DNA of 64,000 nucleotides from Gemmatimonadaceae bacterium (GTDB lineage: Bacteria > Gemmatimonadota > Gemmatimonadetes > Gemmatimonadales > Gemmatimonadaceae), in assembly GCA_040901985.1 (NCBI GenBank), contig JBBDYC010000014.1:3769-67768 (forward strand), in the 5' to 3' direction. Of the stretch, positions 115 through 24,391 are shown one piece after another. How positions within the stretch are numbered: position 1 is the first letter of the stretch; each line of letters begins with the position of its first letter. The notes beneath the pieces are model-generated. The model was not told the DNA's origin. It searched no databases and saw only the letters and a program-made list of their open reading frames with translations. A program made the position numbers and the translations under genes.

Positions 115-149
115 CGGGATAGGAAATTCAATCGGGGTCGGTCGAGTAT
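115..149. repeat. 35-bp non-coding motif, copy 1
   Basis: cgggataggaaattcaatcggggtcggtcgagtat matches 23446-23480 at 34/35 nt. Confidence 0.9.
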
Positions 150-512
150 CCGTCGAACCTCCAGCGCAATCGCCGACCACGCGAGGGCCGGCGATCGCGC
201 GGCGGCGTGCCCTCCGCCCCGCGGCCGCGCCTCGTCGGCCGTCCGCACGGCGGTTGCCGGGGGCGCCCAGTACCTCGGGGGCCGATCGGACGCTCCGGTG
301 GGACGGACGCGCACGCCGAACGTCCCCGTGCGTCGGCGGGGCGTTAGGGGGAGACTCAGTGGGCCCCGTGGGCCGCGGCGGGTCGTCGCGTGGCATCCGG
401 TGCGGACGGTCCCCGCATTAAGGGAGGACTCCGCGCGGCGGCGTGGGCCACCGTCGTTGCGCAGGTGCGGAGGTGGGAGAGGACTGATCGATCACGAACC
501 GCTCCGTAATGT

Positions 513-1933: not shown

Positions 1934-4273
1934 GTGAACGACTCAGCGTTGACGGCGCTCCAGCTGGTCACGGCCGGACGGTATACGATCGAGCGCACGC
2001 TCGGCCGAGGCGGTATGGCGACCGTCTATCTCGCCCGCGACCTGCGTCATGACCGCCTGGTCGCGCTCAAGCATATGGACGCAGAGCTCGCGGCCTCGGT
2101 CGGTGCCGAGCGCTTCCTTCGCGAGATCAACGTCGCCGCGCGCCTTCAGCATCCCCATATCGTGCCCGTTTTCGATTCGGGCGGCGAGGGGTCGCAACTG
2201 TACTACACCATGCCGTACATCGCGGGCGAGTCGCTGCGCGATCTTCTGGATCGAGAGCCGCGCGTGCCGGTGCGCCTCGCCGTCAATCTCGCCCGGCAGG
2301 TAGCCTCGGCGCTCTCCGCCGCGCACGCGGAGGGTGTCGTGCACCGGGATATAAAGCCCGAGAACATCCTCGTCCGCGATGGCCAGGCGCTGGTCACCGA
2401 CTTCGGCATTGCGCGCGCCGTTGGCGATCGCACGACGCTCACCGGCACCGGAGTCTCGCTTGGTACCCCGACCTACATGAGTCCCGAACAGGTCGTCGGC
2501 GATCCCGTCGATGGTCGGAGCGACGTCTTCAGTCTGGGGTGCGTGCTCTTCGAGATGTTGACCGGCGCTCCGCCGTTCGTCGGGCCGACGCTCCAGGCCA
2601 CGCTGACGAATCGACTGATTGAGCCTGCCGCGCCGCTACGGACGGCACGTCCGGACGCGCCGGAACGGCTCGAGGCGGCCCTGGTGACTGCGCTGGCGGT
2701 CAATCCCGACCAGCGTTTCGAGACCGCGGCAGCGTTCGGCGCCGCTCTGGACCTCGCGCACGACACCACACCGTTCCGAGCTCGGGCGCCCGCCCCCGCG
2801 CCGCTGAGGGCGCGGTCGATCACGACGAGGCCGCTGGTTCTCGCCGCGGTGCTCGTCGTCGGCGGGGCGGCGGCCGTCACGCTAGCGGTCATGCGACCAT
2901 CAGCCTCTTCCGTGGGCAATGAGCGAAGCATCGCCGTGATGGACTTCCTTAACCGTTCGTCCGACAGCGCCGATGCGTACCTGGCGAGCGGCCTGACCGA
3001 CGAGGTGACGTCCCGTCTTGGTGACCTCGACCGCCTGCGGGTCAAGGGACGACGTGCCGTCGCGGCAGCGGCCGCGACCCTGCCCGGGGATTACCGTGCC
3101 CTGGGACGGGCGTTGGACGTACGCTATCTCGTCGAGGGCAGCGTTCGACGTGACGGGGCCCGGATACGGATTTCGGTCACTCTCGTGACGAGCGGCGACG
3201 GGTTCCGGATTTGGAGCCAGGATTACGACGGAACCGCAAGCGACCTGATGCTGCTCCAGGAGGAGATCGCTCGCAGTGTCGCACGGCGTGTCGCCGGCGA
3301 GTTGCTGCCGGGCGAGCGTGCGAGCCTGGCCGGACGCAGGACGCACGACGCCGTCGCGTACGACCATCTGCTCCGCGGAAACTTCCTTCTCGCCCAGCGC
3401 AATGCGGATGCGACCGCACGAGCCATCGGCCAATACGACGCGGCCATTGCCCGCGACCCGGGGTTTGTCCTGGCGCTGGCCCGCGCGGCCTACGCCCACG
3501 CGTTGGTGCTTGACTGGGGCTGGACCCTCCCCGGTGTGCCGAGGGACACGGTGCTGACGCGCGGGCTTCTGGCGGCAACACGGGCCCTCGCTCTGGACTC
3601 GACGACGGCGGAGGCGTGGCTCGCGCGCGGCTATCTGCTCACGTTCGCCAATCCCACGACGTTCGCCGGCGTCCAAGATGCGTTCGCGCGTGCCGTCGCA
3701 CACGACTCACTCAACGCCGAGATCCATCACCAGTACGGCTGGGTGTTGCACGAGATGGGTCGCGACTCCCTCGCGCTCGTACAGTACCACCGGGCCCTCG
3801 CATCCGAACCCGAACGAGCGAGCACGCTCCGACAGATCGCGATGGTGCACCTCTTCGCCCAGCGCGACGGAGATGCCGAGCGGTGGCTCGACAGCACGCT
3901 GCGGGTCGATCCCGGCTTCTATTCCGCGTACGGCCTGCGGGGGCTGTTGCGCCTTCGGCGCGGTGACATCGCCGGCGCGCGGGAGGATGGGGAGATGTCC
4001 CTTCGCCTCAGGGCCAGCGATCCATTGCGCGGCGAGTTCGTGTTGGCGCTCGCGGACGTTGCCAGCGGCAACCCGACCGACGCAAGGCGCCGGCTCGCGC
4101 GTATGCACGCCCACATTGGCGGCGGACCGGTGAACGTGTGGGACGCGTGGTACGTGGCGCTCGTACATTTGAGCCTGGACGACCGGAAGGCTACAACCGA
4201 CTTGCTCGAGCGTGTGCCGGAGAAGGGCTTGCTCGTGCGGCTCGGATTCTCGGACCTCGGCATTCGCGAATGA
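1934..4273 (+). CDS. Ser/Thr protein kinase with TM helix, TolB-N-like domain and TPRs
   Basis: GRGGMATV, VALK, HRDIKPEN, DFG and GTPTYMSPEQ motifs; TM at ~aa 300-320; 'SIAVMDF...YLASGLTDEV'; helical repeats. The C-terminus may be clipped. Confidence 0.93.
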   Translation: MNDSALTALQLVTAGRYTIERTLGRGGMATVYLARDLRHDRLVALKHMDAELAASVGAERFLREINVAARLQHPHIVPVFDSGGEGSQLYYTMPYIAGESLRDLLDREPRVPVRLAVNLARQVASALSAAHAEGVVHRDIKPENILVRDGQALVTDFGIARAVGDRTTLTGTGVSLGTPTYMSPEQVVGDPVDGRSDVFSLGCVLFEMLTGAPPFVGPTLQATLTNRLIEPAAPLRTARPDAPERLEAALVTALAVNPDQRFETAAAFGAALDLAHDTTPFRARAPAPAPLRARSITTRPLVLAAVLVVGGAAAVTLAVMRPSASSVGNERSIAVMDFLNRSSDSADAYLASGLTDEVTSRLGDLDRLRVKGRRAVAAAAATLPGDYRALGRALDVRYLVEGSVRRDGARIRISVTLVTSGDGFRIWSQDYDGTASDLMLLQEEIARSVARRVAGELLPGERASLAGRRTHDAVAYDHLLRGNFLLAQRNADATARAIGQYDAAIARDPGFVLALARAAYAHALVLDWGWTLPGVPRDTVLTRGLLAATRALALDSTTAEAWLARGYLLTFANPTTFAGVQDAFARAVAHDSLNAEIHHQYGWVLHEMGRDSLALVQYHRALASEPERASTLRQIAMVHLFAQRDGDAERWLDSTLRVDPGFYSAYGLRGLLRLRRGDIAGAREDGEMSLRLRASDPLRGEFVLALADVASGNPTDARRRLARMHAHIGGGPVNVWDAWYVALVHLSLDDRKATTDLLERVPEKGLLVRLGFSDLGIRE

Positions 4274-7561: not shown

Positions 7562-7867
7562 TCACCGCTTGCCCCGCAACGCCCCCAACACGTTCTGGAT
7601 CAACACGAGATCCGTGTTGATCGAATCGGCCGACATGCGCGCCCAGAACCGCAGGAACCGCTCGTCACTGGGCGCCACCTCAAAAAATGGTTCGGTTGCC
7701 GAATGCAGCACCTGCCGGCGGCCGACCGACAGGGTAGGAGCAGTTCGGATCTCCGCTGCCACGATCGCGGCCGGGTACACAGTGGCCATTCCGCCCTGGC
7801 CGAGTTCGCGCTCGATGCGGTAGCGGTCGGCGAGTGCGGCGGTGAGCCGCTCGAGGGGGATGGGCAC
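7562..7867 (-). pseudogene. Internally deleted kinase-PD40 gene (in-frame N-terminus/C-terminus fusion)
   Basis: The first 31 aa are a kinase N-terminus. The last ~70 aa resemble the final propeller blade and tail of the 7935-10586 paralog. Confidence 0.75.
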
Positions 7868-7934: not shown

Positions 7935-10586
7935 TCAATCCCGCCGCATCACCGCCGCCGCCGTCGCCCGCGGCTGGTCGAACCAGTTCAGCATGAAGTT
8001 CACCCTCCGCTCGGCATTCGCGCCGGCGTCGCGCACGAATACGAACCTCCGCCCGCTGCGATCCACGTCCCACCCCGCGTGGTTTCCCGCCCCGCCCAGT
8101 CGGTACGCGTCCCGGAACAGCGCCCGCGTCCGTCCCGCGCGCACCTCGCCTTCCACGATCGTGATCGGCGTCGCGAACACCGAGTCGCGCGCGCGGAACA
8201 GCAACTCGCGGCCCGCCGCGCCCCATCGCGGTTCGCGCCCGCCGCTGGCCGAGATCTGCACCCGCCCCCCCGGCCCGGGCAGCGCCCGCACGTAGATCTC
8301 GTCGGCGCCCGTCTCGTTCGACACATACGCCAGCCAGCGCCCGTCGGGCGAGGGGGCGATGCCACGCTCTTCGAACGGCGTCACCAGCACCGGCACCGCC
8401 TCGCGCGCACCCGTCGGCAGCCACCACACGTCGCGTCGCGTCGTCGGATCGGTCACGCGGAACACGACGCCGCGCCCGTCGGCGCTCGGCACGCCCTCCC
8501 ACTGATCGTTGGGGCCGATCACCACTGGCTCCTCGACGCCGCTCCCGTCGGACCGCGACCGCCACAGGTCGTAGTCGCCGCTGCGGCTCGTGGCGAAATG
8601 CACCCACTTGCCGTCCGGACTCCACTCCGGGTACACGCTCGCCGAGTCGTACGTGACGCGGCCGAGGGTGTTTTGCGCCAAGTCGAGCGACCAAACGTCG
8701 GGCCGCCCGCCGAGCAGCTCGCCGACGCCGACGGCGACGCGTAGACCGTCGGGCGAGAACCGCGGACTCTCATAGAGGTCCGGCGGCGTGCCGGTTGATC
8801 GCTCGCGGCCCGTCGCATCGACCAGAACCAGTTCGCGGCTCGCTGCAGCGCCGCCCAGCCACGCCAACATTCCGTTGCGGCTGGTGCCAAGCTTCATCGC
8901 GCCGCCAGCGCCAGAGCGCACGTTGGTCGTCACTGGGATCGCCGCGCCGAGTACCCGGACGCGTTCGGGATCGAACGGCGCGGCGAAGAGCACACCGTCG
9001 TTCGTGCCGTACACCAGCCAGCCGCGACCCACGTAACGCGGATACGTGCCGGTGATGCCGAGGTCGGTCACGCGGCGCGAACGCAGCGACATCGCCTGGA
9101 TGCGCGAAGGCCCCGCGCCGGCCGTCATGAACAGCACCGTCTCTCCGTCCGGCAGGATCTCCGGCCACCGGTGCGACGCCGTCGAGTCGCGCAGCAGCGT
9201 GTCCACCGTGCCGCCGTCCGCACCGGTGCGGAGCAGCATGCCGTTCGTCGCGACGATGATGTCGCCGCGCGCGCTCCACGCCCCGCCCTGGAATCCCCCG
9301 CTGACCGGCATCAGCGTGAAGACGGTGCCGCCGGCGATGGACACCCTGCGCAACGCGCCGTTCGACCAGTACGCCACCCACGCCCCGTCGGGGGAGAAGA
9401 AGGGCTGGATGGTGTTCTCGGTGTTGGCTAGGACCATGTCGTTCGTGCCGTCGAGCGAGCGCAGGTAGAGCCGAACCTGCGGGTCTGCAATGGTCTGGGC
9501 TGCGACGACCAGGCGCGACCCGTCGGGCGACAACGCCAGTGGCGACCCCCCGAGGTCGGTGATCGGCACCGTCAGTTCGAGAGCGAACCCGATGACCGGC
9601 GGCGGGGCCTCGAGCGGGCGGGTAGCGAACCACAACGCCGCGAGTGACGCCGCGGCGGCCACCCCCGCGAGGCCCACCGTGAGGGGATCCCACCGAGCTC
9701 GGCCGCGAGAACGAACGCCGGCTCCCGTTGCTGCGGTGAGGCCCGGCAACGTGTACGCCGGATTGCCCAACGCCGCCGCGAACTCCGCCGCCGATGCGAA
9801 CCGATCCGCCGGCAGCTTCTCCAGCGCGTGGCTCACCGCGTCCACCACGTGCGGCGGCACGGCCTTTCGCCACTCGCTCACCGGCTTCACCGGCTCGGCG
9901 ATGATCTTCATGATGATCTGCTGCGCCGACTTTCCCGTGTGCGGCGGCTCGCCGCTCAGCATTTCGTAGAGCACGCTGGCCAGCGAGTACACGTCGGAGC
10001 GCCCGGTGATCTCTTTCTCGGCCGTGGCCTGTTCCGGGCTCATATAGTGCGGCGTGCCGAGGCTCAGCCCTGTCTCTGTCATCCGGCCGCCGGCGGCGGC
10101 GCTCAGCGCCAGCGCGATCCCGAAGTCGGCGACCATCGGACGCCCATCGTGCAGCAGGATGTTCTCGGGCTTGATGTCGCGGTGGATCACGCCGTGGCGA
10201 TGCGCATAGTCGAGTGCGTCGGCCACCTCGCGGGTGATCCGCAGCGCCTCGTCCACGCCGAACTGGTGCTCGCGGTTGAGCTTGTCGCGGAGGGTTTCGC
10301 CTTCGATGAACGGCATCACATAGAAGAGGAAGCCGTCGGCGGTACCGCTGTCGAACAGCGGGAGGATGTGCGGATGCTGGAGCGCCGCGGTCGTCTTGAT
10401 CTCGACCACGAAGCGTTCGGCCCCGAGGACGGCGGCGAGCTCGGGCTTGAGCACCTTGAGCGCGACCTTGCGGTCGTGCTTGAGGTCCTGGGCGAGGTAG
10501 ACGGTAGCCATTCCGCCCTGGCCGAGTTCGCGGTCGATGCGATAGCGGCCGGCGAGGGCGGCGGTGAGGCGGTCGGGGAGGGGCAT
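7935..10586 (-). CDS. Ser/Thr protein kinase with TM helix and TolB-like (PD40) beta-propeller
   Basis: Complete Hanks motifs (HRDIKPEN, DFG, GTPHYMSPEQ); TM; repeated (W/F/L)SPDG motifs. Confidence 0.95.
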   Translation of the reverse strand: MPLPDRLTAALAGRYRIDRELGQGGMATVYLAQDLKHDRKVALKVLKPELAAVLGAERFVVEIKTTAALQHPHILPLFDSGTADGFLFYVMPFIEGETLRDKLNREHQFGVDEALRITREVADALDYAHRHGVIHRDIKPENILLHDGRPMVADFGIALALSAAAGGRMTETGLSLGTPHYMSPEQATAEKEITGRSDVYSLASVLYEMLSGEPPHTGKSAQQIIMKIIAEPVKPVSEWRKAVPPHVVDAVSHALEKLPADRFASAAEFAAALGNPAYTLPGLTAATGAGVRSRGRARWDPLTVGLAGVAAAASLAALWFATRPLEAPPPVIGFALELTVPITDLGGSPLALSPDGSRLVVAAQTIADPQVRLYLRSLDGTNDMVLANTENTIQPFFSPDGAWVAYWSNGALRRVSIAGGTVFTLMPVSGGFQGGAWSARGDIIVATNGMLLRTGADGGTVDTLLRDSTASHRWPEILPDGETVLFMTAGAGPSRIQAMSLRSRRVTDLGITGTYPRYVGRGWLVYGTNDGVLFAAPFDPERVRVLGAAIPVTTNVRSGAGGAMKLGTSRNGMLAWLGGAAASRELVLVDATGRERSTGTPPDLYESPRFSPDGLRVAVGVGELLGGRPDVWSLDLAQNTLGRVTYDSASVYPEWSPDGKWVHFATSRSGDYDLWRSRSDGSGVEEPVVIGPNDQWEGVPSADGRGVVFRVTDPTTRRDVWWLPTGAREAVPVLVTPFEERGIAPSPDGRWLAYVSNETGADEIYVRALPGPGGRVQISASGGREPRWGAAGRELLFRARDSVFATPITIVEGEVRAGRTRALFRDAYRLGGAGNHAGWDVDRSGRRFVFVRDAGANAERRVNFMLNWFDQPRATAAAVMRRD

Positions 10587-13631: not shown

Positions 13632-14795
13632 TCAGCGGACGATGCCACCCCAACCTGGCAGTCCCTCCGCGCCGGGCAAGACCCGATCCACCTGAGCTGC
13701 CGTGAGATCAAAACTCGCCCCGATGACGCCCTTCAGCACGCTGCGCGTGTCCAGGGTCGGCGCGAGATCCCGACCCTCGTAGAGCGCGCGCGTCGAGAGC
13801 CCAGGCCAGTCAGACACCACCGCCGACCGCGCCACCTTCGGCCCGATCACGAATCCGGCGCCCGCGGTCCCGTGATCCGTCCCGCGCGTCCCGTTCGGGC
13901 TCGCCGTCCGACCGAACTCGGTCATCACCACCACCGTCGTCTCCGCCCAATCGTCCCCCATTGCCGTCCGGAAGGCGCCAAGACCACCAGCCAACTGACC
14001 GAGTAGCCGGTCGAGGGCGCCCCCGACGAGCCCTTGATTGGCGTGTGTGTCCCAGCCGCTGAACTCGACGGCCGCCACGTTCGGCCCGTTCGGAGCCCGC
14101 ATCAGCCGCGCCGCAGCCTCGAGCAGCGGCGTCACCGCTCCCCTGCCTGCCGCACCGCGCGCCATCGGCTCCTCGCCAACATCGGCTTGCTGTTGCACCG
14201 CCGCCTCCCACCGACCCGCGAGCGCTCGGTCCCGCCGGTAGAGCGTCGCCAGCCGCTCGAGATACGCGTCGTCCACCACACCGAGTTGCGCGGGCGACCA
14301 GGTGCGCACTTCGAATGGGCCGCTCATCGAACGCGGCATTCCTGAGGCGACCGCGAGCCCACTCCGCTCGCCCGGCATCACCTGCAACAGTCGGTTCAGC
14401 CATCCATCTGAACTTCCGATGGGACGGTCGAGTCCAGTTTCGAGCACGGCCTGACCGTCGAAGTGCGACCGCGTCCGGTAGGGAATCGCCATCGCCTGCA
14501 ACACCACCAGTTCATCGCGTTGCCAGAACTCGCCAAGGGAGGCGAGTCCGGGCGCGAGCCCGAACAGGTCGTTGAGCGGAGTAAGCTGACTCGCGTCGAA
14601 CGCCAACTCCCCGCGAAGCGCGCGGTACGCGGGATCGCCATACGGCACCACCGCGGCCAGTCCGTCGAACCCACCGCGGAGCAGCACGAAGACGAGCCGT
14701 CCACCCTGGCGGACCCGCGCAAACCGCACCACAGGCATCCCGAAAGTGGCCAGGCCGCCCGCACACATTGACCCGACGAAGTCACGACGGTCCAT
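13632..14795 (-). CDS. DUF1501-family Tat-exported protein
   Basis: 'MDRRDFV' Tat motif; 'LRGGFDGL', 'RSHFDGQ', 'GWDTH', 'TEFGRT..NG..GTDHG'. Confidence 0.92.
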   Translation of the reverse strand: MDRRDFVGSMCAGGLATFGMPVVRFARVRQGGRLVFVLLRGGFDGLAAVVPYGDPAYRALRGELAFDASQLTPLNDLFGLAPGLASLGEFWQRDELVVLQAMAIPYRTRSHFDGQAVLETGLDRPIGSSDGWLNRLLQVMPGERSGLAVASGMPRSMSGPFEVRTWSPAQLGVVDDAYLERLATLYRRDRALAGRWEAAVQQQADVGEEPMARGAAGRGAVTPLLEAAARLMRAPNGPNVAAVEFSGWDTHANQGLVGGALDRLLGQLAGGLGAFRTAMGDDWAETTVVVMTEFGRTASPNGTRGTDHGTAGAGFVIGPKVARSAVVSDWPGLSTRALYEGRDLAPTLDTRSVLKGVIGASFDLTAAQVDRVLPGAEGLPGWGGIVR

Positions 14796-14798
14796 TGG

Positions 14799-16181
14799 TC
14801 ACCTCCACTGAAATGCGGGCGACGCAAACGCGATGGCCGCCCGTTCGGCTGCCGGGATCTCGTCATCCGCGAGGAGCGCAGCGAGCGCGGCATCGTCGGG
14901 AACGACCGTCGCGAGCGCCCGAGGGGCGGCAGCGCTGATTCCCACTCCGCGCGCGGCCATCCCGCGCGCCGCACCGGGCGCTGCGTTTCCCGCCCGTCGC
15001 GCGATGGTGCGCGCCAGTTCCGCGCGGTTGAGGAGCGAGTCGGGGTCCGCCCATTCCCGCTGCAGGTCGCCGAACCCCTTGGGGGACTGTGGCGACCACA
15101 TCGGCTGCCGCAACTGCCGGAGGACGTTCAACAGATTCTCCCCGGCTTGACGCGCCCCGGCGGCACGCATCACCGCGACGAGCCAGTCCTGGGGCGCACG
15201 AAACTTCACATTGCGCTCATCCCAGCACTCGGGCAGCGCGACGAGTGCTCGCGCCAGCTCGCGCAGGTCGCCCCCGCTCTCGCGAAAGACCTGCTCCAGC
15301 CGCGCCACGGCACTCGCCGGCGGCGTATCGGCGACGAAGTGGGTCGCGAGCTTCGTGGCGATGTGTTTTGCGGTGGCGGGATGCCTGCAGAAGGCACGAA
15401 TCGCGCGCTCCCCCTCGCGCTCACCCTCGCCATAGCGCTCGCCGAGGATCGTCTTTCTCCCGGGCTCGTTGCGGATGGCGACGAACCGAAAGGCAGGGAC
15501 CCCCCTTGCCGCGATGCCATCGGTGGTCCAGCCCGTGAGCAGTCGCGCGAGCTCGGTGACGTCGGCTTGGGTATAGCCGCCTCCGACGCCGAGCGTGTGC
15601 AGCTCCAACAGCTCTCGCGCATAGTTCTCGTTGAGTCCGAGCTCACGCCTGCCGGACGCGCGCTGGGCCGCTTGCGACCGCGGACCCACGCTCTGCGCAT
15701 TGTCGAGGTACACGAGCATCGCGGGGTGGCGCGCGCTCGCGAGGACCATTGCCTCGAACGTCCCAAGTGCATTCGCGCGAATCACGTCGCGCTCATAGCT
15801 GCCCGCGAGCGGACCGACGAGCAACCGACTGCCGACCGAGACGCACAGATGGTCGCCCCAGAACGCAATCAGCCGCTCCGCGAATGGGCGCTCGCTGGTC
15901 GCGCGCATCTCGAGCGTGCTCGCGCTCTCCGCCACCGCGATGAGCACCAGACGTCGCCGCGCCGCGGCGCGCGCGGCGCGGTCCTCGGAGCGCTGCAGTC
16001 GGCGAAACGCGGAGAGCGAGGCTTCAATTTCGGCGCTGGCGGCCCCCGCAGGCACCGAGCGCGCCGGAGGCGCACCGGCCAGCTGCCCAAGCAGCCATCC
16101 GCGGGGGTCGCCAAGTCGGTCCGCCTCGCCTGGGCGTGCGCCAAGACCAAACCGATTGAGCGCGCGAAGTGAACTGCTCAT
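14799..16181 (-). CDS. DUF1800-family protein
   Basis: 'LNRFGLG', 'HPAMLVYLDN', 'NENYARELLELHTLGV'; usual partner of DUF1501. Confidence 0.92.
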   Translation of the reverse strand: MSSSLRALNRFGLGARPGEADRLGDPRGWLLGQLAGAPPARSVPAGAASAEIEASLSAFRRLQRSEDRAARAAARRRLVLIAVAESASTLEMRATSERPFAERLIAFWGDHLCVSVGSRLLVGPLAGSYERDVIRANALGTFEAMVLASARHPAMLVYLDNAQSVGPRSQAAQRASGRRELGLNENYARELLELHTLGVGGGYTQADVTELARLLTGWTTDGIAARGVPAFRFVAIRNEPGRKTILGERYGEGEREGERAIRAFCRHPATAKHIATKLATHFVADTPPASAVARLEQVFRESGGDLRELARALVALPECWDERNVKFRAPQDWLVAVMRAAGARQAGENLLNVLRQLRQPMWSPQSPKGFGDLQREWADPDSLLNRAELARTIARRAGNAAPGAARGMAARGVGISAAAPRALATVVPDDAALAALLADDEIPAAERAAIAFASPAFQWR

Positions 16182-16240
16182 GCCTGCCAGACGATCCAGG
16201 ATCGCAATTGTTAGTGTGCAGCGCGGCAGGGCCGGGCCGC

Positions 16241-16942
16241 TCACGAATGCCAGAGCGCCTGCAGGCCGAACGAAGCTCGTTTCCCGTAGGTCGCCGCGGG
16301 CGGGCGGTCCGTCACGTCAATGCAGTTCGGAGTCGCCCCGCACGCGCCGCCGCCCTGGTCCTCGCGATACCAGCGCAGCTCAGCCGTGAGGACGAAGTAG
16401 CACAGGAAGCCAAGCTTCGCGCCGACCGCCGTGTTGAAGCTGTAGTCGTACGAGTCGAGCGCCTCGTACTGATACGAGTCGTCGGTGAGATCGAACTCCT
16501 CGAACTCGCCCTGCGTGTACCAGCCGGGCGCGACGGTCAAGAACGGAACGAGCGCGACAGCGCCGGGAAGCGCGTAGCCGACCGTGAAATCGACCGAGTG
16601 GAAGGTGATCTGGCGCTCGGTGACGCGCCAATCGGTAAACAGTGCCGTCGCGCGATCGTATCCGACCTGCACGAGCCATTTATCGTCGCCCAGGAGCCAC
16701 GAGCCGCCGACGCCGAGTGCGATGCCGTCCGCCTCGCTTCGTACCGGCGGGCTGTCCACGCCCCCCGGATCGGTCGGGCGATAGCTCACCGGCACGTCGG
16801 AGAGCGTAGCGCGCTGGTACGAGAGGTAAATCCCCTTGTGAAAGACGGCACGTGCGACCGAAGCACGCTCCTGCGCCGTCGCCCTGCCGGCAGCCACGAC
16901 GTGCACAAGCAGTAGCAGCGCAATTGCGTTGCGTCGGGACAT
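16241..16942 (-). CDS. Outer-membrane beta-barrel-like exported protein
   Basis: Signal peptide; amphipathic beta strands; acidic loop; Cys pair. Confidence 0.65.
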   Translation of the reverse strand: MSRRNAIALLLLVHVVAAGRATAQERASVARAVFHKGIYLSYQRATLSDVPVSYRPTDPGGVDSPPVRSEADGIALGVGGSWLLGDDKWLVQVGYDRATALFTDWRVTERQITFHSVDFTVGYALPGAVALVPFLTVAPGWYTQGEFEEFDLTDDSYQYEALDSYDYSFNTAVGAKLGFLCYFVLTAELRWYREDQGGGACGATPNCIDVTDRPPAATYGKRASFGLQALWHS

Positions 16943-17172
16943 CCGTGCCTCGCAGTCAATGCAAAGTCGGGGGTGCGCCTACCTGCTGGCCGAGAACGAC
17001 ACCATCAGGCGGCCCTTCAGACGGCCGGTGTCCGGATCAGACGCGCGGAGCGAACCTGGCTGCACTCCCCTCGCCCGGCGGCCACTGCGGGGATTCAGCG
17101 GTTGGGGGTGCGCAGCGAAGAACACCGCCACGCACCCCCGAATCACAGGCCCAACGGCAACCGCTGTTCGCG

Positions 17173-18210
17173 TTACGTCTTCACCGCCGTCCAGGTCAGA
17201 TTCACGGTGCTACTACACCCCGAGAGGCTCCAGTTGAACGTCAGGTTGCCGCTGGCGCTCGTGCCTCCAATGAACGTGCCAGTGATGGTCCATCCAAGCG
17301 GTGAACCGCTCACGGTCCGATTGATCGTCCCCGACGCAATGCTGAACGGCGTGTTGAAGGTGGTCGTGGTGTTGCCCGTGACTCCGCACGCCGGAATGCG
17401 GAATCCCAGGTAGATCTGCGTCACCGCGTTGTCGACGACGGTGATCCGGACAGTGCTGTCTTGCGATGAGGTCCCGACCCACGTGCCGCTCAGATCGGGG
17501 GTCACATTCAGCGTGACGGTGACGGTGCGCGGCGTGTTGGTTGCGCCCGGGGCGGCTATGGTGATGGTTCCAGTGTAGGTGCCGGCCGCGAGGCCCGTGG
17601 TGTTTGCGGTGACCGTCACGTTCGACGGTGCGCTGCCGCTCCCGGCCGAGAGCGAAAGCCAGGCCTGATCGTCGCCCGCCGTCCAGTTGAGCGTTCCCCC
17701 GCCGGTGTTCGAAATCGCGAGTTCCTGCGCGGCGGGTGACGCCGCGCCGACCATCCCCGAAAACGTCATCGCTGTCGTCGAAACGCCAATCGTCGATGGA
17801 GGCTCAACGGTCAGGGTGACGTTCACCACCTGCGGCGAGTTGGTCGCGGTAGAGGAGGAGATTGCGACAGCGGCGTTGTACGTGCCCGCCGTCAATCCGG
17901 TGGTATTCGCGCTGACGGTGAGCGAAGTACCGGAGCCGCTCGCCGGCGCTAGGCCGACCCAAGCTTGGTTGGCCGTCGCGACCCACTCGAGCGTCGAGCC
18001 GCCAGTATTGGTAATGGTGACGACCTGCGAAGCCGGGCTGACTCCGTCGGCAACACCGGTGAAGACGAGCGCTGCCACCGAAAGCGAGATCGTCGGCGGA
18101 GGACCCGAGGTGCCGGTGGGTTGATCACACGCGACCGCAAACGCGAGCGGCAGGATCCGACCGGCGCCGAGCAGGGCGCGGATCCTCCGCCAAGTGACCG
18201 GGCGGGTCAT
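17173..18210 (-). CDS. Lipoprotein with two BACON/Ig-like domains
   Basis: Lipobox 'AVA-C'; two repeats of 'NTGG.TL.W....QAW......SG...G(L/T).AGTY'; TGATG overlap with the upstream gene. Confidence 0.85.
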   Translation of the reverse strand: MTRPVTWRRIRALLGAGRILPLAFAVACDQPTGTSGPPPTISLSVAALVFTGVADGVSPASQVVTITNTGGSTLEWVATANQAWVGLAPASGSGTSLTVSANTTGLTAGTYNAAVAISSSTATNSPQVVNVTLTVEPPSTIGVSTTAMTFSGMVGAASPAAQELAISNTGGGTLNWTAGDDQAWLSLSAGSGSAPSNVTVTANTTGLAAGTYTGTITIAAPGATNTPRTVTVTLNVTPDLSGTWVGTSSQDSTVRITVVDNAVTQIYLGFRIPACGVTGNTTTTFNTPFSIASGTINRTVSGSPLGWTITGTFIGGTSASGNLTFNWSLSGCSSTVNLTWTAVKT

Positions 18211-18770
18211 CACCAGGACCTCCCGAGCGACAGGTTGAGCATCCAGACGAGATAGCGCTCGCTGCCGGCACTTCCCGAGCCGTCCTTCCACGTGTCGTCC
18301 GAGCCGAAGGTGCCGAGCAACCCGCCGAGGACAATCGAGAATCCATTTGGCTTGATCCACCGGTGGCCGAACGTTCCGCCGTACCCCACGATCTGCGAGT
18401 AGAACGTCTGGTTATCGGTCCTCCCGACCTCCACGTGGGGGCCGACGTACCATCGCCGGAGCCGGCTGGCCCCAGGGTAGTAGCGCCACGTGCCGTAGAC
18501 GGTCCAGCCCGACTCGATTCCGTCGTTGATCAGGTGGGAGACCAGGCCAAACGCCGGCAGTCGTACGCCTCCGCCGAGGGAGGCCGCGTCGCTGATCGCG
18601 CGCTCGTACTCAATGTTCGGTCCGAGCTGCAGCGGGCCCAGGATGTTCGTGGACAGTGCGGACGAAACCGGCGTATGCCCGGCCGACTGCGCAGCGATCT
18701 TGGCAAACGGACATCCGAGACAAACAGCGATGGCTAAAGCGGTCGCGAGCGGTCGGGACGATCGTGACAA
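18210..18770 (-). CDS. Small outer-membrane beta-barrel protein (DUF3575-like)
   Basis: GGAG then TTG start; signal peptide; 'STN......PNIEYER', 'WRYYP....WYVGP'; C-terminal W. Confidence 0.7.
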   Translation of the reverse strand: MSRSSRPLATALAIAVCLGCPFAKIAAQSAGHTPVSSALSTNILGPLQLGPNIEYERAISDAASLGGGVRLPAFGLVSHLINDGIESGWTVYGTWRYYPGASRLRRWYVGPHVEVGRTDNQTFYSQIVGYGGTFGHRWIKPNGFSIVLGGLLGTFGSDDTWKDGSGSAGSERYLVWMLNLSLGRSW

Positions 18771-18798
18771 GGCGCTCTCCGGATGAGGGGTCCCTCCC

Positions 18799-21700
18799 TC
18801 ATCGCGGAACCGCCGCAATTGTGACCGGGGCAGCCCCGTTCGCGAACAGGACATAGGGTGCCCAGTCGATAGCAGAGACCCCGGCGGCCCGGAGCGCCAG
18901 TTTGGCGCCGCGAACGGCTGCGGCGGGCGATTCGCCCGCCACGAGGCGCGGGTAGAACTCGGCCGCAAAGTCGGCGGAATGCTCGCCGACCGACCAAAGC
19001 GTGGCGACCGTCGCGGCCGCGCCGGCGGCGAGGAAGCTCCGGCTCAGGCTGAGCACCCCCTCGCCCTCCAGCGTGCGTCCGGCCGCCGTCTCGCACGCGC
19101 TGAGAACGACGAGGGCGCCGGCGGAGTTCAACCGCGCGATCTCGGTCGGCGCAAGGTCTCCGTCGTGGCCCGCGTCGGCTGCGAGGAGCACGCGCGCGTG
19201 TTCAGGCCGCGCGGCACTCGCCTCGGCGTGTGTGGCAAAGTGAAGGACCGAAGCGCTCGGGGCGACGGCTCGCAGCGCAGCAACGGTCGCTCGAGCGCCC
19301 TCGAACACGTGCAGCCGTCCTTCGGGAACCGCCCGCCGCATTATCGCCAACTCGCGCGCTGCGCCGGGGGCATCTCGTGCTGTTCCCGGAGCGAGGGTGA
19401 GGATCACCCCAGGTCGCAGTTGCGGGCGCGTTGCTCCGAGCGGCGTCATGGCTTGGGTGATTTCGAATCGGTCCAGAAGCGCGAGCGTCGCCTCGGTCCT
19501 CGGCGCGGCGCGCGTCGGATCGCTGAACGGAAGCGCGTCGAAAGGGACGAGGAAGAGCGCACCGTCCGGCACGATCATAACCCGCTCGATTCCCGTGAGC
19601 AGCGGGATGACCGGCGTGATGATTGCCTCCGAGAGCGCGCGCGCGGCCTCCACGTCGAATCGCGTCCGAGAGCGGTCAAGCATGGTACCGACCCGCGCGC
19701 GCATCCCGCGTGCAAGGCGCCCGATCGCGGCCCGGATCGAGTCCGCGGGCGTATCGAGTCGCGTAACAGACGCTCCCTGAGGTCCGATGACCAACACCGC
19801 CGCCACTGTGTCGAGCAGGACGAAGTCGAGGATCGCCTCTTCCGCCGAGGGACGCGGCAGGTGCACCCCGGTGGGTCTTCCCAGCTTCGAGTCGCCGGAC
19901 TCGCTGGAGCGCAGTGCACGCGCCTTTCGCCGTTCGGACCAACGCAGGAAATGCGCCGCAGCGCCTGGCCGGTCACGTTCCGCGATAATTGCCGCAAGTG
20001 CGCCATCGTAGACGCGACGCTGAGCCGACCGGAAGCCCGCGCGATCGGGGTCGAGGGCAATCCCCTCGGCGACAGAATCGGAGAGATCGGCCGCGCGAGC
20101 GAACATATCGAGTGCAGCGTCAATTTCCCCGGCGCTTGCGTGGAGTTCCGCGGCGAGTCGTCGGGCCGAGATGCGGAGCCGCGCGTCGCCGCCGCGCTCG
20201 ATTTCCGCGTGCACGACCGCCGCGCGCCGCCGCGCGCTCGACCCGCTGCGGCCGCTGCCGCCGCGCGCCTGAGCCAACGCGCTGAACAGCTCCGCACGTT
20301 GCGCCGTCCCAATCTCCCCCACGCTCTGCGCAGCCACACGCGCGCTGTCGGCCAGGCGGTGACCCGCACTCGAATGACCGAGCGCGAGCTCGACCTCCGC
20401 CAGATCCAACGTCAGTTGCGCCCACGCGGCTGTTTGCCCCCGCGCCGTCGTCTCCCGCCGCGCCGCGTCGAAGGCGTCGCGCGCCTCACCGAACTGGCGG
20501 GCCTCGAGAAGCACCGTCGGGAGCAACGCCGCCGATTCCGGGCGCCCGATGGTGCCCCGGCGCTGGTCGTGTCTCCGCGCGAGCCGCGTCGCTTCGGCGA
20601 AGTCGCCCTCGGCAAGCGCCAGCCGCGTCAGCCCCTCAAGCACTCTCGCCGTCTCCTCCTCGACGCCAATGCTGCGGAGGTAATACGCGTGCGCGCGGTC
20701 GAGGTCGCCGCGCGACTCGTAGTACTCGGCGGCGTAGTTAAACTGCGTGCCGAGCGAGTCGATATCGGCAAGCATCCGCCCGAAGTGGACCGCCGCCGAG
20801 TCCGATTCGCCCCTCGCCTGCAGGAATCGACCGTAGTCGCGCGCGCTCATCATCCTCACCTGATCGAGCCCCCCCATCGCCGCGTAGTGGACGAAGCGTC
20901 CTCCCGCGTCGCGTGCATCGGCGTGCCGCCCCAGGGCCTCGAAGAGGTGCAGAAGATTGTGTTCGACCTCCTTGGCGATCTTCGGGGAGTCGGCGCGCGC
21001 AACGGCGACGCGTGCGCGGACGAGCGAGGACTCCGCGGCCGCCGTCGCGCCGCGCTTGACTTGCACGCGCCCCAGGCGCATCTGCGCTTCCGCCACGAGC
21101 GCGTCGTCGCCCAGCAGCCCCGCGAGGCCGGCAACGCGCTTCCAGACCGCCTCGGCGCGGCCGAGATTCCCCGTATTCAACTCGTGGAGGCCCACGTCAA
21201 CCAACACCAAAGCCGCGCCGAGACGGTCGCCTTCGTCGGCCGCGGCGCGGCGCGCGGCATTTGCACTGTCAATCATCGCCGCCGAATGGCGTAGTTCGTC
21301 TGGTGTAGCGCCCCGCGCGTGGCGGTCGAACGCGAGTCCGTGGACCCCAATGGCGAGCCAATAGCGCGCCCGGAAGCCGGGCCTCGACCACGCTGGGTCG
21401 GTGCGCGCGCGCGCCTCGGCCTCAACCGCGCGCCCGTGGTCGCCCAGGGCGTGCCAGGCCCCGGCCTCGAGTGCGTAGGAGGCGGCGCGATGCAACGGGT
21501 GATGTCGGAGGTCCTGATGCTCACGTGCCCACCGTTGCTCGGCGCGCCACTGCTCGAGCGAGGTCGTGGGCGCCACGCAGTGCAGCGCGATGCGCGGTGC
21601 GTCCGCCAGCCGTACGCGGAAGCGGATCATCGCGTCATTCACAGGCGGACACCCCGACAGGGTCGAACGGATCACGAGGGAGAACATCAACGCGCAGTCG

Positions 21701-22098
21701 TTGGCGGCCGACGTTGCGTCGCCCACAGACACCGGCTCCGGCGCATATCCGCGCGCGGTTCGCGCGATCTGACCGAGACAATGGCGAAGCTTCGGTGAAG
21801 TGGCGCGCGCGGCGATCGAGTCGAATTGCGCGAGCGCGCGACTTGAGATATCCGTCCGCAACGCTGCGTAGTACTCGAAGAGAGGAGGCAGCCAGGTCGG
21901 ATCGCTGCGAAGGGCGGCCTCGTATTCGTCCCGTGCGACCGCCAACTGCAGATCGAGTTCGGCCTCGAGCGCGCGCACAAAGTGCGCCCGGGCTTCGGGG
22001 CTCCCGGCTGAGGCGTCACGGCGAAGCAACTGGGCCGTGACCGCGCCCAACACGAACACCACTGCCGCACCTGCGGCGATAACCCCGCTCCTCGTCAC
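18799..22098 (-). CDS. Membrane-anchored TPR + CHAT-domain (caspase-like) protease
   Basis: 'IVPDGALFLVPFDAL', 'VLHFATHA', 'LVVLSACET', 'SFLAAGA..TVATLWSV', 'WAPYVL'; N-terminal hydrophobic helix; GTGA overlap with the anti-sigma gene. Confidence 0.92.
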   Translation of the reverse strand: MTRSGVIAAGAAVVFVLGAVTAQLLRRDASAGSPEARAHFVRALEAELDLQLAVARDEYEAALRSDPTWLPPLFEYYAALRTDISSRALAQFDSIAARATSPKLRHCLGQIARTARGYAPEPVSVGDATSAANDCALMFSLVIRSTLSGCPPVNDAMIRFRVRLADAPRIALHCVAPTTSLEQWRAEQRWAREHQDLRHHPLHRAASYALEAGAWHALGDHGRAVEAEARARTDPAWSRPGFRARYWLAIGVHGLAFDRHARGATPDELRHSAAMIDSANAARRAAADEGDRLGAALVLVDVGLHELNTGNLGRAEAVWKRVAGLAGLLGDDALVAEAQMRLGRVQVKRGATAAAESSLVRARVAVARADSPKIAKEVEHNLLHLFEALGRHADARDAGGRFVHYAAMGGLDQVRMMSARDYGRFLQARGESDSAAVHFGRMLADIDSLGTQFNYAAEYYESRGDLDRAHAYYLRSIGVEEETARVLEGLTRLALAEGDFAEATRLARRHDQRRGTIGRPESAALLPTVLLEARQFGEARDAFDAARRETTARGQTAAWAQLTLDLAEVELALGHSSAGHRLADSARVAAQSVGEIGTAQRAELFSALAQARGGSGRSGSSARRRAAVVHAEIERGGDARLRISARRLAAELHASAGEIDAALDMFARAADLSDSVAEGIALDPDRAGFRSAQRRVYDGALAAIIAERDRPGAAAHFLRWSERRKARALRSSESGDSKLGRPTGVHLPRPSAEEAILDFVLLDTVAAVLVIGPQGASVTRLDTPADSIRAAIGRLARGMRARVGTMLDRSRTRFDVEAARALSEAIITPVIPLLTGIERVMIVPDGALFLVPFDALPFSDPTRAAPRTEATLALLDRFEITQAMTPLGATRPQLRPGVILTLAPGTARDAPGAARELAIMRRAVPEGRLHVFEGARATVAALRAVAPSASVLHFATHAEASAARPEHARVLLAADAGHDGDLAPTEIARLNSAGALVVLSACETAAGRTLEGEGVLSLSRSFLAAGAAATVATLWSVGEHSADFAAEFYPRLVAGESPAAAVRGAKLALRAAGVSAIDWAPYVLFANGAAPVTIAAVPR

Positions 22099-22844
22099 CG
22101 CGCCCCCCGAATGCTGTCCGCCAGCGCACGAAGAGGGACGAACGCCGCGCTCGATCCGCGCCGAGGTGGCTCGAGAACCGCCAACGCCGAGTCCGCGCGC
22201 CCGAGTCGGAGCCACGCCTTCGCTCCGAGCCGCCGCGCGTCCACCTCGAACGGGCCGCCGATTTCCGACCACGCGATCTCCAAGGCAGGCAGGGCCCGAG
22301 CGGGGTCGCCGGTCAGCAGCCGAGAGGCTCCGAGGAAGAAGCTCACTCCGGGCGTCGAGTCTTCGACGGCGGCCTCCGTCAACCTGGCCGCCGCGCGAGC
22401 GTAGTCCCCGCGCAGGTATGCCTCCATCCCGCGGTCAATCAGCGCGGCGGTCGCAGACGCCGGGCGGCCACCGCGCACCGGCTGCGGGTCGAACAACGGC
22501 GCCGTCACCACGTGCAGGGGATCATAGGACGGCCGGAGCGTCCACGGGAGCGACCGCGGGTAGAGCATCAGGGCGACGCTCGCGGCCACAAGCGTTACGG
22601 CGCCAACGACAAGTCCACGTCGCAAGCGCCGAGGTCCTGGCGCCCGTCCAGCAATAAGCGCCCGCTCGAGCGAGGGGCGCGTCGGAATGGTCCGGAGCGC
22701 GGCGCGCACCCCGGCGCCGAGCCGCACCCGCGCGCGGCACTCGGCGCAACCGAGCAGATGGATCTCGAACGAGTCGAGTTGATCGGAAGTCAGGGAACCC
22801 GCCACATAGGCGGGGGCCTCATCATCAGCGCGCAGGCAGTTCAC
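22095..22844 (-). CDS. zf-HC2 anti-sigma factor with TM helix and C-terminal TPR
   Basis: 'FEIHLLGCAEC' (HxxxCxxC); TM 'GLVVGAVTLVAASVALMLY'; GTGA overlap with the sigma gene. Confidence 0.88.
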   Translation of the reverse strand: MNCLRADDEAPAYVAGSLTSDQLDSFEIHLLGCAECRARVRLGAGVRAALRTIPTRPSLERALIAGRAPGPRRLRRGLVVGAVTLVAASVALMLYPRSLPWTLRPSYDPLHVVTAPLFDPQPVRGGRPASATAALIDRGMEAYLRGDYARAAARLTEAAVEDSTPGVSFFLGASRLLTGDPARALPALEIAWSEIGGPFEVDARRLGAKAWLRLGRADSALAVLEPPRRGSSAAFVPLRALADSIRGAR

Positions 22845-23389
22845 GAGGCTTTCATCGCGTTACGTGCGGGAACGTGACCATCGGGGGCGGCCACGGACAG
22901 GGCTTCGCGAAGGCGGCCAAGCGCGCGCGACTTGCGCTTGCGGAGGCGCGCGGCCGGCTCGCCGAGCGCGCGCGCGATGCTGCCGATCCGTTCGCCATCC
23001 ACGAAGCAGCGGTGGAGGAGTTCGCGATCAGCGGGCTCAAGTGTCCTGAGCGCGTCGGCGAGTTTCGCGCGCTCTTCTTGGCTCACGAGCAATTCGAGCG
23101 CATTTGCCCCAGGTTCTGGCGCGTCCACACCGAGTGCGACGACGCGCTGCCGGGCGCGGAGCACGTCCACAATGACGTGCCTGACAATTCCGTGCGCCAC
23201 TGGAGCGATCTCGTGATCCGGCAACGGAGGGCCACGACGCAGGCGATCGAGGAGCCGCGCCACGCACTCCTGCGCCGCGTCGCGCGCGTCCTCGAGCTCC
23301 CCGAGTCGCCGCAGCGCGATGAGCTCCAACCCTTCGCGGAGCTCCGCAAGTCTACTGTCTGGGAACGTCTCTGGCAGCAGGCGCGGCAA
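22841..23389 (-). CDS. ECF RNA polymerase sigma factor
   Basis: Region 2 'EDARDAAQE'; region 4 'L...DRELL....DG..I..IA..LG......R.RKSRAL.RLR'; GAGGAG RBS. Confidence 0.88.
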   Translation of the reverse strand: MPRLLPETFPDSRLAELREGLELIALRRLGELEDARDAAQECVARLLDRLRRGPPLPDHEIAPVAHGIVRHVIVDVLRARQRVVALGVDAPEPGANALELLVSQEERAKLADALRTLEPADRELLHRCFVDGERIGSIARALGEPAARLRKRKSRALGRLREALSVAAPDGHVPARNAMKAS

Positions 23390-23415
23390 CCCAAGCTCCT
23401 CGACCGGATGCCCAT

Positions 23416-23450
23416 AGCTTAACGCTCCCGAGCGTGCCCCGCGCTCGGGA
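23416..23450. promoter_or_regulatory. -10-like TAAGCT (minus strand) for the sigma gene, plus a 9-bp inverted repeat
   Basis: agctta at 23416-23421; tcccgagcg (23426-23434) / cgctcggga (23442-23450). Confidence 0.5.
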
Positions 23451-23480
23451 CAGGAAATTCAATCGGGGTCGGTCGAGTAT
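23446..23480. repeat. 35-bp non-coding motif, copy 2 (candidate ECF promoter/operator)
   Basis: 34/35 identical to 115-149; lies between the divergent sigma and lipoprotein genes. Confidence 0.9.
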
Positions 23481-23608
23481 ACGGTGTGATGCCCCGCCGC
23501 GCGAGCACCGGCGGGCGGGCGACGGGGCGACGGCGGAGGGGCCGTTCGGGCGGGTGCCACAGAGCGAGTGAAACTGGCGTTCCTGCCGCACCCAGGGCAC
23601 GTTTCGCC

Positions 23609-24391
23609 ATGGGACTCCGTTCGTTCTTCCCGCTCGCGGCGAGCCTGCTCGTCGCATCTTGCGGACCAGCCGGGACCGGACCCGGCGGGTCCGGCCCGTC
23701 AGTTCCAACTCTCGCGAGCGTCACGCCCGCGTCGGGGAACACCGGCGCAACGGTCAACGTGACAGTGGGGGGCACCGGGTTCGACGCCGGCGCCATCGTC
23801 ACGATCAGCGGCAGCCACGTCGCGGTCTCCGCGGTCACCGTGCCCTCTGCCACCCAGGCCACCGCCACGTTCACCATTGATGCGGTGGCGGCCACCGGCG
23901 CCCGCAACGTGTCGGTCACCACCGCCGAGGGGACCAGCAATACGGCGACCTTCACCATCAACGCCGCGGCGTTCGCCGTGGACATTGATCTGAACCGCGG
24001 CACCGTCCGATTCCCCAACTCCTACCAGAACTGGCAGATCGGCGGGGGCTCAGCCACCAACTTCGTCGCCTACCCGCAGGGTTGGACCGTGGGCGGGGGC
24101 TCGGCCAGCAACTTCGTGCCGGTGCCGCCGGGTTGGTCCGTGGGAGGAGGCTCGGCGACCAACTTCGTCGCGTACCCCGGCAACGGGGTCACGACCCTCG
24201 AACTCAAGTTCGACGACCCGGGGTGGCTCGCGTTCTTCCAGGCACTCCAGGCGGGTGGCTCGATGACCGAACTTCAGCTCGCCGATGTCGTCACGTACGT
24301 GTATTTCACGTACCGGCCCGAGCACATCAATGGCAGCGGCAACACCGCGACGACCCACTCGCAGGGAGACGCGGCGACCGGCGTGTGGTGA
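23609..24391 (+). CDS. Lipoprotein with an IPT/TIG-like domain and three 17-aa tandem repeats
   Basis: Lipobox 'LVAS-C'; 'PTLASVTP.SG..G..V.V.G.GF...VTT.EGTSN'; WxxGGGSAxNFVxxP repeats. Confidence 0.85.
   Translation: MGLRSFFPLAASLLVASCGPAGTGPGGSGPSVPTLASVTPASGNTGATVNVTVGGTGFDAGAIVTISGSHVAVSAVTVPSATQATATFTIDAVAATGARNVSVTTAEGTSNTATFTINAAAFAVDIDLNRGTVRFPNSYQNWQIGGGSATNFVAYPQGWTVGGGSASNFVPVPPGWSVGGGSATNFVAYPGNGVTTLELKFDDPGWLAFFQALQAGGSMTELQLADVVTYVYFTYRPEHINGSGNTATTHSQGDAATGVW
24032..24184 (+). repeat. 3 x 51-bp intragenic tandem repeat
   Basis: WQIGGGSATNFVAYPQG / WTVGGGSASNFVPVPPG / WSVGGGSATNFVAYPGN. Confidence 0.95.

Follow-up and report, generated by a model that had tools for sequence, protein, structure and literature searches.

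The stretch of DNA analysed here (the window) is 64,000 nt long and comes from contig JBBDYC010000014.1 of the Gemmatimonadaceae genome GCA_040901985.1 (G000). Its minus strand carries a chain of three genes encoding a sigma factor of the extracytoplasmic function (ECF) type, a membrane anti-sigma factor with a zinc-binding anti-sigma (ZAS) domain, and a protein that combines tetratricopeptide repeats (TPR) with a CHAT protease domain; we discuss the trio as a candidate trans-envelope switch. The genes and the sites on which the discussion turns are located as follows.

22841-23389, minus strand: ECF sigma factor gene (182 residues, TTG start, sigma regions 2 and 4 only)
22095-22844, minus strand: anti-sigma gene (249 residues; CHCC-type ZAS domain, transmembrane segment 77-95, linker 96-130, TPR domain 131-248)
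22473-22475, minus strand: codon of anti-sigma Arg124, predicted to be the P1 residue, as a site of cutting or of docking
18799-22098, minus strand: TPR-CHAT gene (1099 residues; N-terminal hydrophobic segment, Cys107/Cys135, CHAT domain 817-1085)
19660-19719, minus strand: CHAT residues 794-813, predicted by the complex model to be an exosite for the anti-sigma linker and TPR domain (Asp808 in 19/19 alignment rows)
19228-19230, minus strand: codon of the catalytic His957, with Ala958 next (Ala in 18/19 covering rows)
19093-19095, minus strand: codon of the catalytic Cys1002

Both junctions, sigma/anti-sigma and anti-sigma/CHAT, read as GTGA overlaps, and the coordinates and domains given for the three genes in a first-pass annotation of the letters are borne out by open reading frame (ORF) and Pfam checks. 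For the sigma factor, Pfam recognises r2 and r4 alone and TIGR02937 scores 47.4 bits against a cut-off of 42.9. The CHAT domain (PF12770) is recognised with an E-value of 1e-44 (153.6 bits, cut-off 24). In the structure model (mean pLDDT 83.5), the protein is helical to about residue 730, with the CHAT domain at the C-terminal end. VIA-align shows that it folds like Csx29 and separase; its match to the Csx29 family model NF041237 reaches 14.4 bits, where 300 would be required. The top Foldseek matches are to DdvA (8RW5 and 8ROT) at 15-16% identity, and VIA-align spans DdvA residues 295-991 (Z 24.2, rmsd 17.7, 602 aligned). DdvA came up in the fold search alone and is not among the matches listed when the PDB was searched by sequence with the CHAT alignment or domain.

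The His/Cys dyad is retained, as had been read at first: His957 is present in all 19 alignment rows that cover it, spanning 26-42% identity; Cys1002 is missing from one row only, that of the frameshifted locus L095, and is kept in the other 18 of the 19. The residue after the histidine is indeed alanine in place of glycine, but it is not the oddity that it had been taken for; in 110 generic CHAT homologues, this position is Gly in 62, Ala in 39 and another residue or none in 9. His-Ala is thus ordinary among CHATs and, being so common, does not support the idea of a dead enzyme, though the enzyme could still be inactive. By its sequence, the window protein has the CHAT domain and His-Cys dyad of clan CD, with proteolysis predicted. 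All 19 rows that include the N-terminus start with a hydrophobic stretch (residues 6-24 in the window copy), which in 8/19 ends in a lipobox-like Cys; these topology calls combine hydropathy with lipobox-like motifs recognised by eye. The window copy lacks a lipobox; its N-terminus might be removed by cleavage at Ala-Ser-Ala or be retained as an anchor. Of the N-terminal hydrophobic anchor first described, the hydrophobic stretch therefore stands, with 'exported' better supported than 'anchored' and the type of anchor variable. Cys107 and Cys135 are conserved in 20/20 rows, as expected of a disulphide.

The anti-sigma factor has a zf-HC2 domain at residues 3-37 (Pfam, E 1.2e-5) with zinc ligands C3, H29, C33 and C36, the last three invariant in the alignment. 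Its single hydrophobic segment (77-95) comes after Arg-rich residues and is in turn followed by TPR matches at 134-225, so the transmembrane segment and TPR domain stand in the order given by the first annotation. As the basic residues precede the transmembrane segment, the ZAS domain would lie inside and the TPR domain outside. Together with the hydrophobic N-termini, the lipobox-like Cys and the Cys pair of CHAT, this agrees with the extracytoplasmic location proposed earlier: the C-terminal part of the anti-sigma factor and CHAT both likely face the periplasm. The linker (96-130) is a low-confidence coil in the structure model. Its sole invariant residues are Pro116 and Arg124 (19/19 anti-sigmas), and the columns adjacent to them vary. 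The anti-sigma profile matches DdvA (8ROT) residues 7-93 (E 1.2e-4); with CHAT aligned to 295-991, this fits a split near the scaffold. The TPR domain was considered as a counterpart of the DdvA stem, a match that Foldseek with the anti-sigma model did not return (none at E <= 0.001, generic TPRs only), and the assignment was dropped.

CHAT residues 262-1089 were modelled with anti-sigma residues 97-249 in three runs, alongside three controls. The complex has an ipSAE of 0.65 (0.63-0.66 over the three runs) against 0.00 for the best of the controls; 73% or more of the contacts recur between runs, with a partner pLDDT of 78 or higher. The score mark that we used is passed by 116/157 solved and 2/215 mismatched pairs, rates that are only rough for our own alignments. 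The score may reflect memory by the model of DdvA, separase or Craspase structures, though identity to these is 10-16%. The interface brings CHAT residues 794-813, 911, 913, His957, 1036-1039 and 1041 into contact with anti-sigma residues 117-124, 126-129 and the TPR helices. The invariant Glu916 and Asp845 of CHAT are candidates for an acidic partner of Arg124, should it lie in S1. Multimer modelling, suggested with the first annotation, thus docks the linker at the active site; it is in this predicted complex alone that the CHAT active site is seen to face, in trans, the linker next to the transmembrane segment. In clan CD, the strand that follows the catalytic Cys (loop L5) binds substrates, and the P1 residue is Arg in separase, paracaspase and gingipain R (PMC4357240). 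CHAT 1034-1039 would be the counterpart of the L5 substrate strand.

Nine full-length relatives were found (34-43% identity), one of them from Longimicrobiales. The N-terminal 740 residues of CHAT match in 6 of 401 genomes of the class, its own included, and in none of 93 genomes of the same family; the module is therefore patchy. Ten loci were examined via the CHAT N-terminus, seven genomic (including a second copy in the same genome) and three metagenomic. The order sigma, anti-sigma, CHAT is found in nine; because it is the same in nine of ten loci, it is not due to chance, and in the tenth the contig ends inside the CHAT gene. The genes that flank the trio are not orthologous among the loci; its own adjacency is fixed, while the lipoprotein genes vary. 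The neighbourhood survey of homologs hence bears out the expectation that the trio occurs in other genomes (9/10 orthologous loci and L122, below) and shows that this does not extend to the flanks. Wherever both genes are present (10 loci), a stop codon closes the anti-sigma frame and CHAT has an ORF of its own; the CHAT frame is always -1 to that of the anti-sigma, which is a normal coupled overlap. A programmed frameshift to a DdvA-like fusion was considered for the window and rejected, as CHAT has a GTG start and no slippery run was seen.

The CHAT start differs in four loci. CTA stands at the head of the signal peptide in L092:11662, L095:3477, L096:11434 and L097:10998, where other loci have ATG or GTG overlapping the anti-sigma stop, and L097 has no in-frame ATG, GTG or TTG within 75 nt on either side of the CHAT start region. 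Non-canonical reinitiation or a rare fusion is possible at these loci. In L095:388-3477, the CHAT frame shifts just upstream of the catalytic Cys, which makes it a pseudogene or an assembly error.

An anti-sigma-based search gave matches in 17/401 genomes, with three new ones of near full length. L122 is a complete trio, L124 (from a 72%-complete genome) has the sigma gene with no CHAT found, and L123 is a remnant with neither a ZAS domain nor an adjacent CHAT. Of these, the held-out loci L122 and L124 keep the linker Arg; the CHAT-less L123 has Gly at this position (one case). L124 (G134) also shows a tandem of two anti-sigma-like genes, the second lacking the transmembrane segment and linker, and several sigma genes or fragments. 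As background, we used 78 generic CHAT loci from other phyla, among the matches listed with a full CHAT alignment; no full-length orthologue is among them. With our own profiles, at least 26 of these have a sigma gene, at least 28 an anti-sigma-like gene and at least 18 both, counts that are lower bounds since several loci are short.

The trio also carries a promoter-like motif. The predicted sites and the genes around them are the following.

22853-22879, minus strand: predicted promoter P1, GGTCACG-N15-CGATG, in the 3' tail of the sigma gene, facing anti-sigma and CHAT
18800-18826, minus strand: predicted promoter P2, GGTCACA-N15-CGATG, in the tail of the CHAT gene, about 30 nt before the barrel gene
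18210-18770, minus strand: DUF3575-type outer-membrane barrel, predicted target
17173-18213, minus strand: predicted target, a lipoprotein gene that is coupled to that of the barrel and encodes two BACON_2 domains
17105-17140, minus strand: strong hairpin after the BACON gene, without a U-tract, probable end of the target transcript
16241-16942, minus strand: outer-membrane protein (OMP) beta-barrel (OMP_b-brl fold), no motif; its stop overlaps the start of DUF1800-DUF1501 genes
23609-24391, plus strand: divergent TIG-domain lipoprotein with three 17-residue repeats, membership of the module unsupported

Sigma genes end in the DNA motif GTCAC(G/A)-N15-CGA(C/T) in nine of ten loci; the exceptions in form are L082 (no motif), L097 (16-nt spacer) and L083 (CGGT). 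The L092 copy extends beyond the stop codon, hence the motif is not a protein constraint. A matrix was trained on eight sigma-tail sites, and other positions were tested against 4000 random windows that still contained true sites. Held out in this way, the motif recurs at the CHAT stop in 5/9 loci, each with a p of 0.004-0.011, and in 3/8 it is found on the divergent strand. Promoter P2 scores 15.5 (empirical p 0.008) and ranks third in the 64-kb window. Upstream of the sigma gene, the held-out matrix finds the motif in 0/8 loci, and the sigma factor is thus probably not autoregulated. A sigma-70 promoter scan gave 0 sites.

Eight of the 11 second motif sites lie before a lipobox-type N-terminus (our own reading) and that of the window before the barrel-BACON pair; the remaining two are undecided. 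The domains of the predicted targets vary (Big_2, PKD, LamG, Kelch, PEGA and BACON). The neighbouring genes first described (a barrel, a lipoprotein with two BACON domains, a further barrel and a divergent repeat lipoprotein) are all real by Pfam and structure searches; the DUF3575-type barrel has a Pfam E-value of 0.0012, below the cut-off, with Atlas features of 0.97 and TM ~0.7. The proposal that the sigma factor induces these surface proteins keeps motif support for the DUF3575 barrel and the BACON lipoprotein. The divergent TIG lipoprotein (best score 4.2, p 0.44) and the second barrel have no motif, and both were dropped as targets. The hairpin lies upstream of the second barrel (z -4.27 for the 91-nt stretch, with 0/200 shuffles as stable). 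This barrel is probably outside the module; window 13632-16942 is a run of OMP barrel, DUF1800 and DUF1501 genes in which the barrel stop overlaps the DUF1800 start, probably a separate operon.

Elsewhere in the genome, the 15 further top matches to the motif fall within genes in ten cases and between genes in five, two of the latter about 100 nt before Kelch-domain lipoproteins. Copies at G000:C19:3650 and C19:18879, far from both trios, each precede a Kelch-domain lipoprotein (637 and 803 residues). The second trio of the genome lies at G000:C2:139618-144181 (L098). Its -10 element is CGAC(A/T), against CGATG at both sites of the window, a difference that might insulate the two sigma factors. 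The divergent Big_2 lipoprotein gene of L098 is interrupted by an IS30-like element (L098:14506-15459).

We consider it somewhat probable that the trio acts as a trans-envelope switch of the DdvA type built from two proteins: the likely exported CHAT protein would bind the linker and TPR domain of the anti-sigma factor and, when signalled, cut after Arg124. By analogy with DdvA, the ZAS domain would hold the sigma factor at the membrane. In the model, the CHAT hairpin 794-813 would grip the anti-sigma TPR domain and linker residues 117-124, against His957 and strand 1036-1041. An envelope signal sensed by the TPR superhelix would align the dyad of this active site, until then at rest. The cut after Arg124 would remove the TPR shield, and RseP and cytoplasmic proteases would complete the degradation of the anti-sigma factor; the genome encodes an RseP-type site-2 protease (TIGR00054 above cut-off at G000:C5). 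The freed sigma factor would read the GTCAC(G/A)-N15-CGA(C/T) promoters to produce varied surface lipoproteins and barrels, while promoter P1 would supply more anti-sigma and protease as a negative feedback.

The first-pass annotation knew of no mechanistic description and drew its parallel with Csx29. A closer precedent exists in DdvS/DdvA of Myxococcus xanthus (PMC11506125, PMC6061681; 8ROT, 8RW5, 8RLZ). Both systems have an ECF sigma factor and a single-pass anti-sigma with a CHCC ZAS domain, and DdvA also has a periplasmic TPR-CHAT part with a His/Cys dyad, a flexible linker after the transmembrane segment that faces the CHAT active site, and RseP available. In DdvA, the TPR-CHAT part is fused to the anti-sigma; here, one gene encodes ZAS domain, transmembrane segment, linker and TPR and another TPR-CHAT, so that the protease, unlike the fused DdvA, comes with a separate export signal or lipobox. 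The promoters are related in shape (GTAA-n16-CGT for DdvS, GTCA-n17-CGA here), but DdvS targets CBASS/CRISPR genes, whereas the predicted targets here are surface lipoproteins and barrels (PMC6061681). DdvS drives its own gene; the motif here, located in the sigma tail, would drive anti-sigma and CHAT only. The trio would function as DdvA does but falls outside that type, since fusion, promoter and targets differ. The survey of DdvA homologues took in only fused proteins, from Myxococcota and one Comamonas (PMC11506125). No description of a split sigma/anti-sigma/CHAT module was found in the literature searched, most subscription papers being outside its coverage, and the split trio is real and conserved and, as a variant of the DdvA kind, apparently unpublished.

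The type III-E Craspase system (Csx29/Csx30/CASP-sigma) shares the TPR-CHAT fold and a CHAT protease that cuts a sigma inhibitor. It differs in being cytoplasmic and RNA-activated via Cas7-11, and Csx30 does not belong to the membrane anti-sigmas with a ZAS domain (PMC10028731). ECF54 sigma factors resemble the present one in having CHAT proteins in their gene context; they are described as actinobacterial and without an anti-sigma factor, whereas a membrane ZAS anti-sigma is present here in 9/10 loci (PMC8999054; PMC7826278).

In the DegS/RseA/RseP and PrsW/RsiW pathways, a site-1 cut of the periplasmic domain of the anti-sigma factor is followed by RseP. Unlike in those pathways, the part of site-1 enzyme would fall here to a dedicated cysteine protease of clan CD that carries a TPR sensor and is encoded together with its substrate. 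The structure of DdvA leaves open whether its periplasmic CHAT is the site-1 protease of the anti-sigma, a test of which, according to its authors, must await discovery of the signal (PMC11506125). The split form offers enzyme and substrate as separate proteins, with Arg124 as the single residue predicted to be scissile, residues 794-813 as a predicted exosite, a reporter motif and natural His-less controls. If the proposed switch is correct, caspase-like proteases would gate envelope signalling in many bacteria beyond CRISPR and defence, given sigma and anti-sigma-like genes at no fewer than 18 of the 78 unrelated TPR-CHAT loci listed. The wider reading is tentative, and we put it slightly short of an even chance: a widespread, undescribed form of trans-envelope signalling, with an exported Arg-specific caspase-like site-1 enzyme for its own anti-sigma, a beta-hairpin exosite, a P-x-(F/Y)-x-G-x-x-(V/I)-R cut site, an interchangeable lipoprotein cassette, live and His-less versions, and DdvA as a rare fused member.

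Several observations weigh against cutting by CHAT or against so close a kinship with DdvA. VIA-align puts Csx29 (Z up to 29.6) above DdvA. Ala follows the catalytic His here, though structures of clan CD conserve Gly at this position (PMC4357240), and the Asp of LWxVxD, found in 74/110 generic CHATs, is missing from most of the present subfamily. Cys1002 lies outside the confident interface contacts. The DdvA study, in the part available, shows RseP action on truncations and only proposes CHAT autoproteolysis, cleavage not being demonstrated (PMC11506125). In distant anti-sigma linkers, Arg is present in 10/20 against a chance rate of 0.38 (in a test set beforehand); a wider linker window chosen afterwards has Arg in 16/20 by eye, which we treat as a lead only. 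L124 has the linker Arg, yet no CHAT was found in its incomplete genome.

The main counter-evidence comes from a sister subfamily formed by eight ZAS-only anti-sigma matches (L112-L119 / L127-L134), whose periplasmic domain differs and is probably a beta-sandwich (by eye). CHAT lies directly downstream in seven of the eight loci; in the remaining one, the end of the contig falls within a long ORF. The sister sigma factors are closely related to those of the trio and have the same promoter motif, the strict pattern being present in 5/8 sister sigma tails, where the G000 genome has 27 matches over its 5.28 million strand-bases. In 6/7 of the sister CHATs, and in L039, the catalytic His is replaced by Arg, Ala, Val or Phe with the Cys kept, and the sister anti-sigmas have a linker Arg in 8/8 (H-R-(A/G/E) linker), whose homology to Arg124 is not established. 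Neither the trio nor the Arg thus requires catalysis; the module can persist without it, and binding without cutting is possible.

Such binding is the core of the alternative that survives best, although we regard it as unlikely: CHAT would hold Arg124 in S1 as a pseudo-substrate and shield the linker until a signal splits the pair, after which a host site-1 protease or RseP would degrade the anti-sigma, so that loss of CHAT would turn the sigma factor ON. The His-less sisters in the same trio, the His-Ala with the missing LWxVxD Asp and the position of Cys1002 all suit this arrangement. So do the gingipain prodomain, whose Arg occupies S1 in a pose that cannot be cleaved (PMC4357240), and DdvA, whose dyad mutants still repress and whose TPR-CHAT sterically blocks RseP (PMC11506125); joint induction of CHAT and anti-sigma by promoter P1 would befit a co-repressor. 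Against it stands His957, kept in every row of the present subfamily though the sister group loses the His freely. This strict retention is, at the level of sequence, the best argument that the window copy cuts.

Cleavage might instead be constitutive, with CHAT cutting the linker once after export, the pieces remaining bound and a signal pulling the complex off. The docked model requires no ligand, and self-cleaved anti-sigmas with associated fragments are known, but DdvA is not cleaved constitutively and has its dyad in a resting pose (PMC11506125); we find this improbable. Least credible is that CHAT merely belongs to what the regulon produces, serving lipoprotein processing or defence, for instance, and has no control over the anti-sigma: its predicted transcription from the sigma-dependent promoter P1, its patchiness (6/401, 0/93), a lower GC content at third codon positions (GC3) and an IS91-like end alongside recall accessory or defence islands, but the confident modelled interface with the anti-sigma, the fixed adjacency while lipoprotein genes vary, the fusion of both halves in DdvA and the lack of any PADLOC match in 10 proteins speak against it.

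The switch had been proposed as independent of CRISPR, and no CRISPR link was found. Cas1 was not found in the 99.97%-complete, 2.64-Mb genome, PADLOC matched 0/10 locus proteins, and there is no cas-like gene among the called genes of the window and no CRISPR array among the 20 largest repeat families; Cas7-11 was not searched genome-wide. The module has a GC3 of 0.76-0.83, against 0.91-0.93, which together with its patchiness and the IS91-like end points to an acquired island. This end is a repeated element at the upstream edge of the module.

23446-23483, plus strand: 38-nt repeated element, probable IS91-like end

Further copies are located at window 115-152 and in G000 at C1:31334, 33523 and 36434, C19:3495 and 5736, and C9:113225; on C1 the element follows the 3' end of an IS91-like (Y2_Tnp) remnant at a distance of about 210 nt. 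Lipoprotein and kinase genes, one predicted sigma target among them, have copies at their flanks, and the element may have mobilised lipoprotein/kinase cassettes. In the window, 595-1671 is an IS30-like remnant, and 1934-4270, 7565-7867 and 7938-10586 are three related Ser/Thr kinase genes, one of them a fragment.

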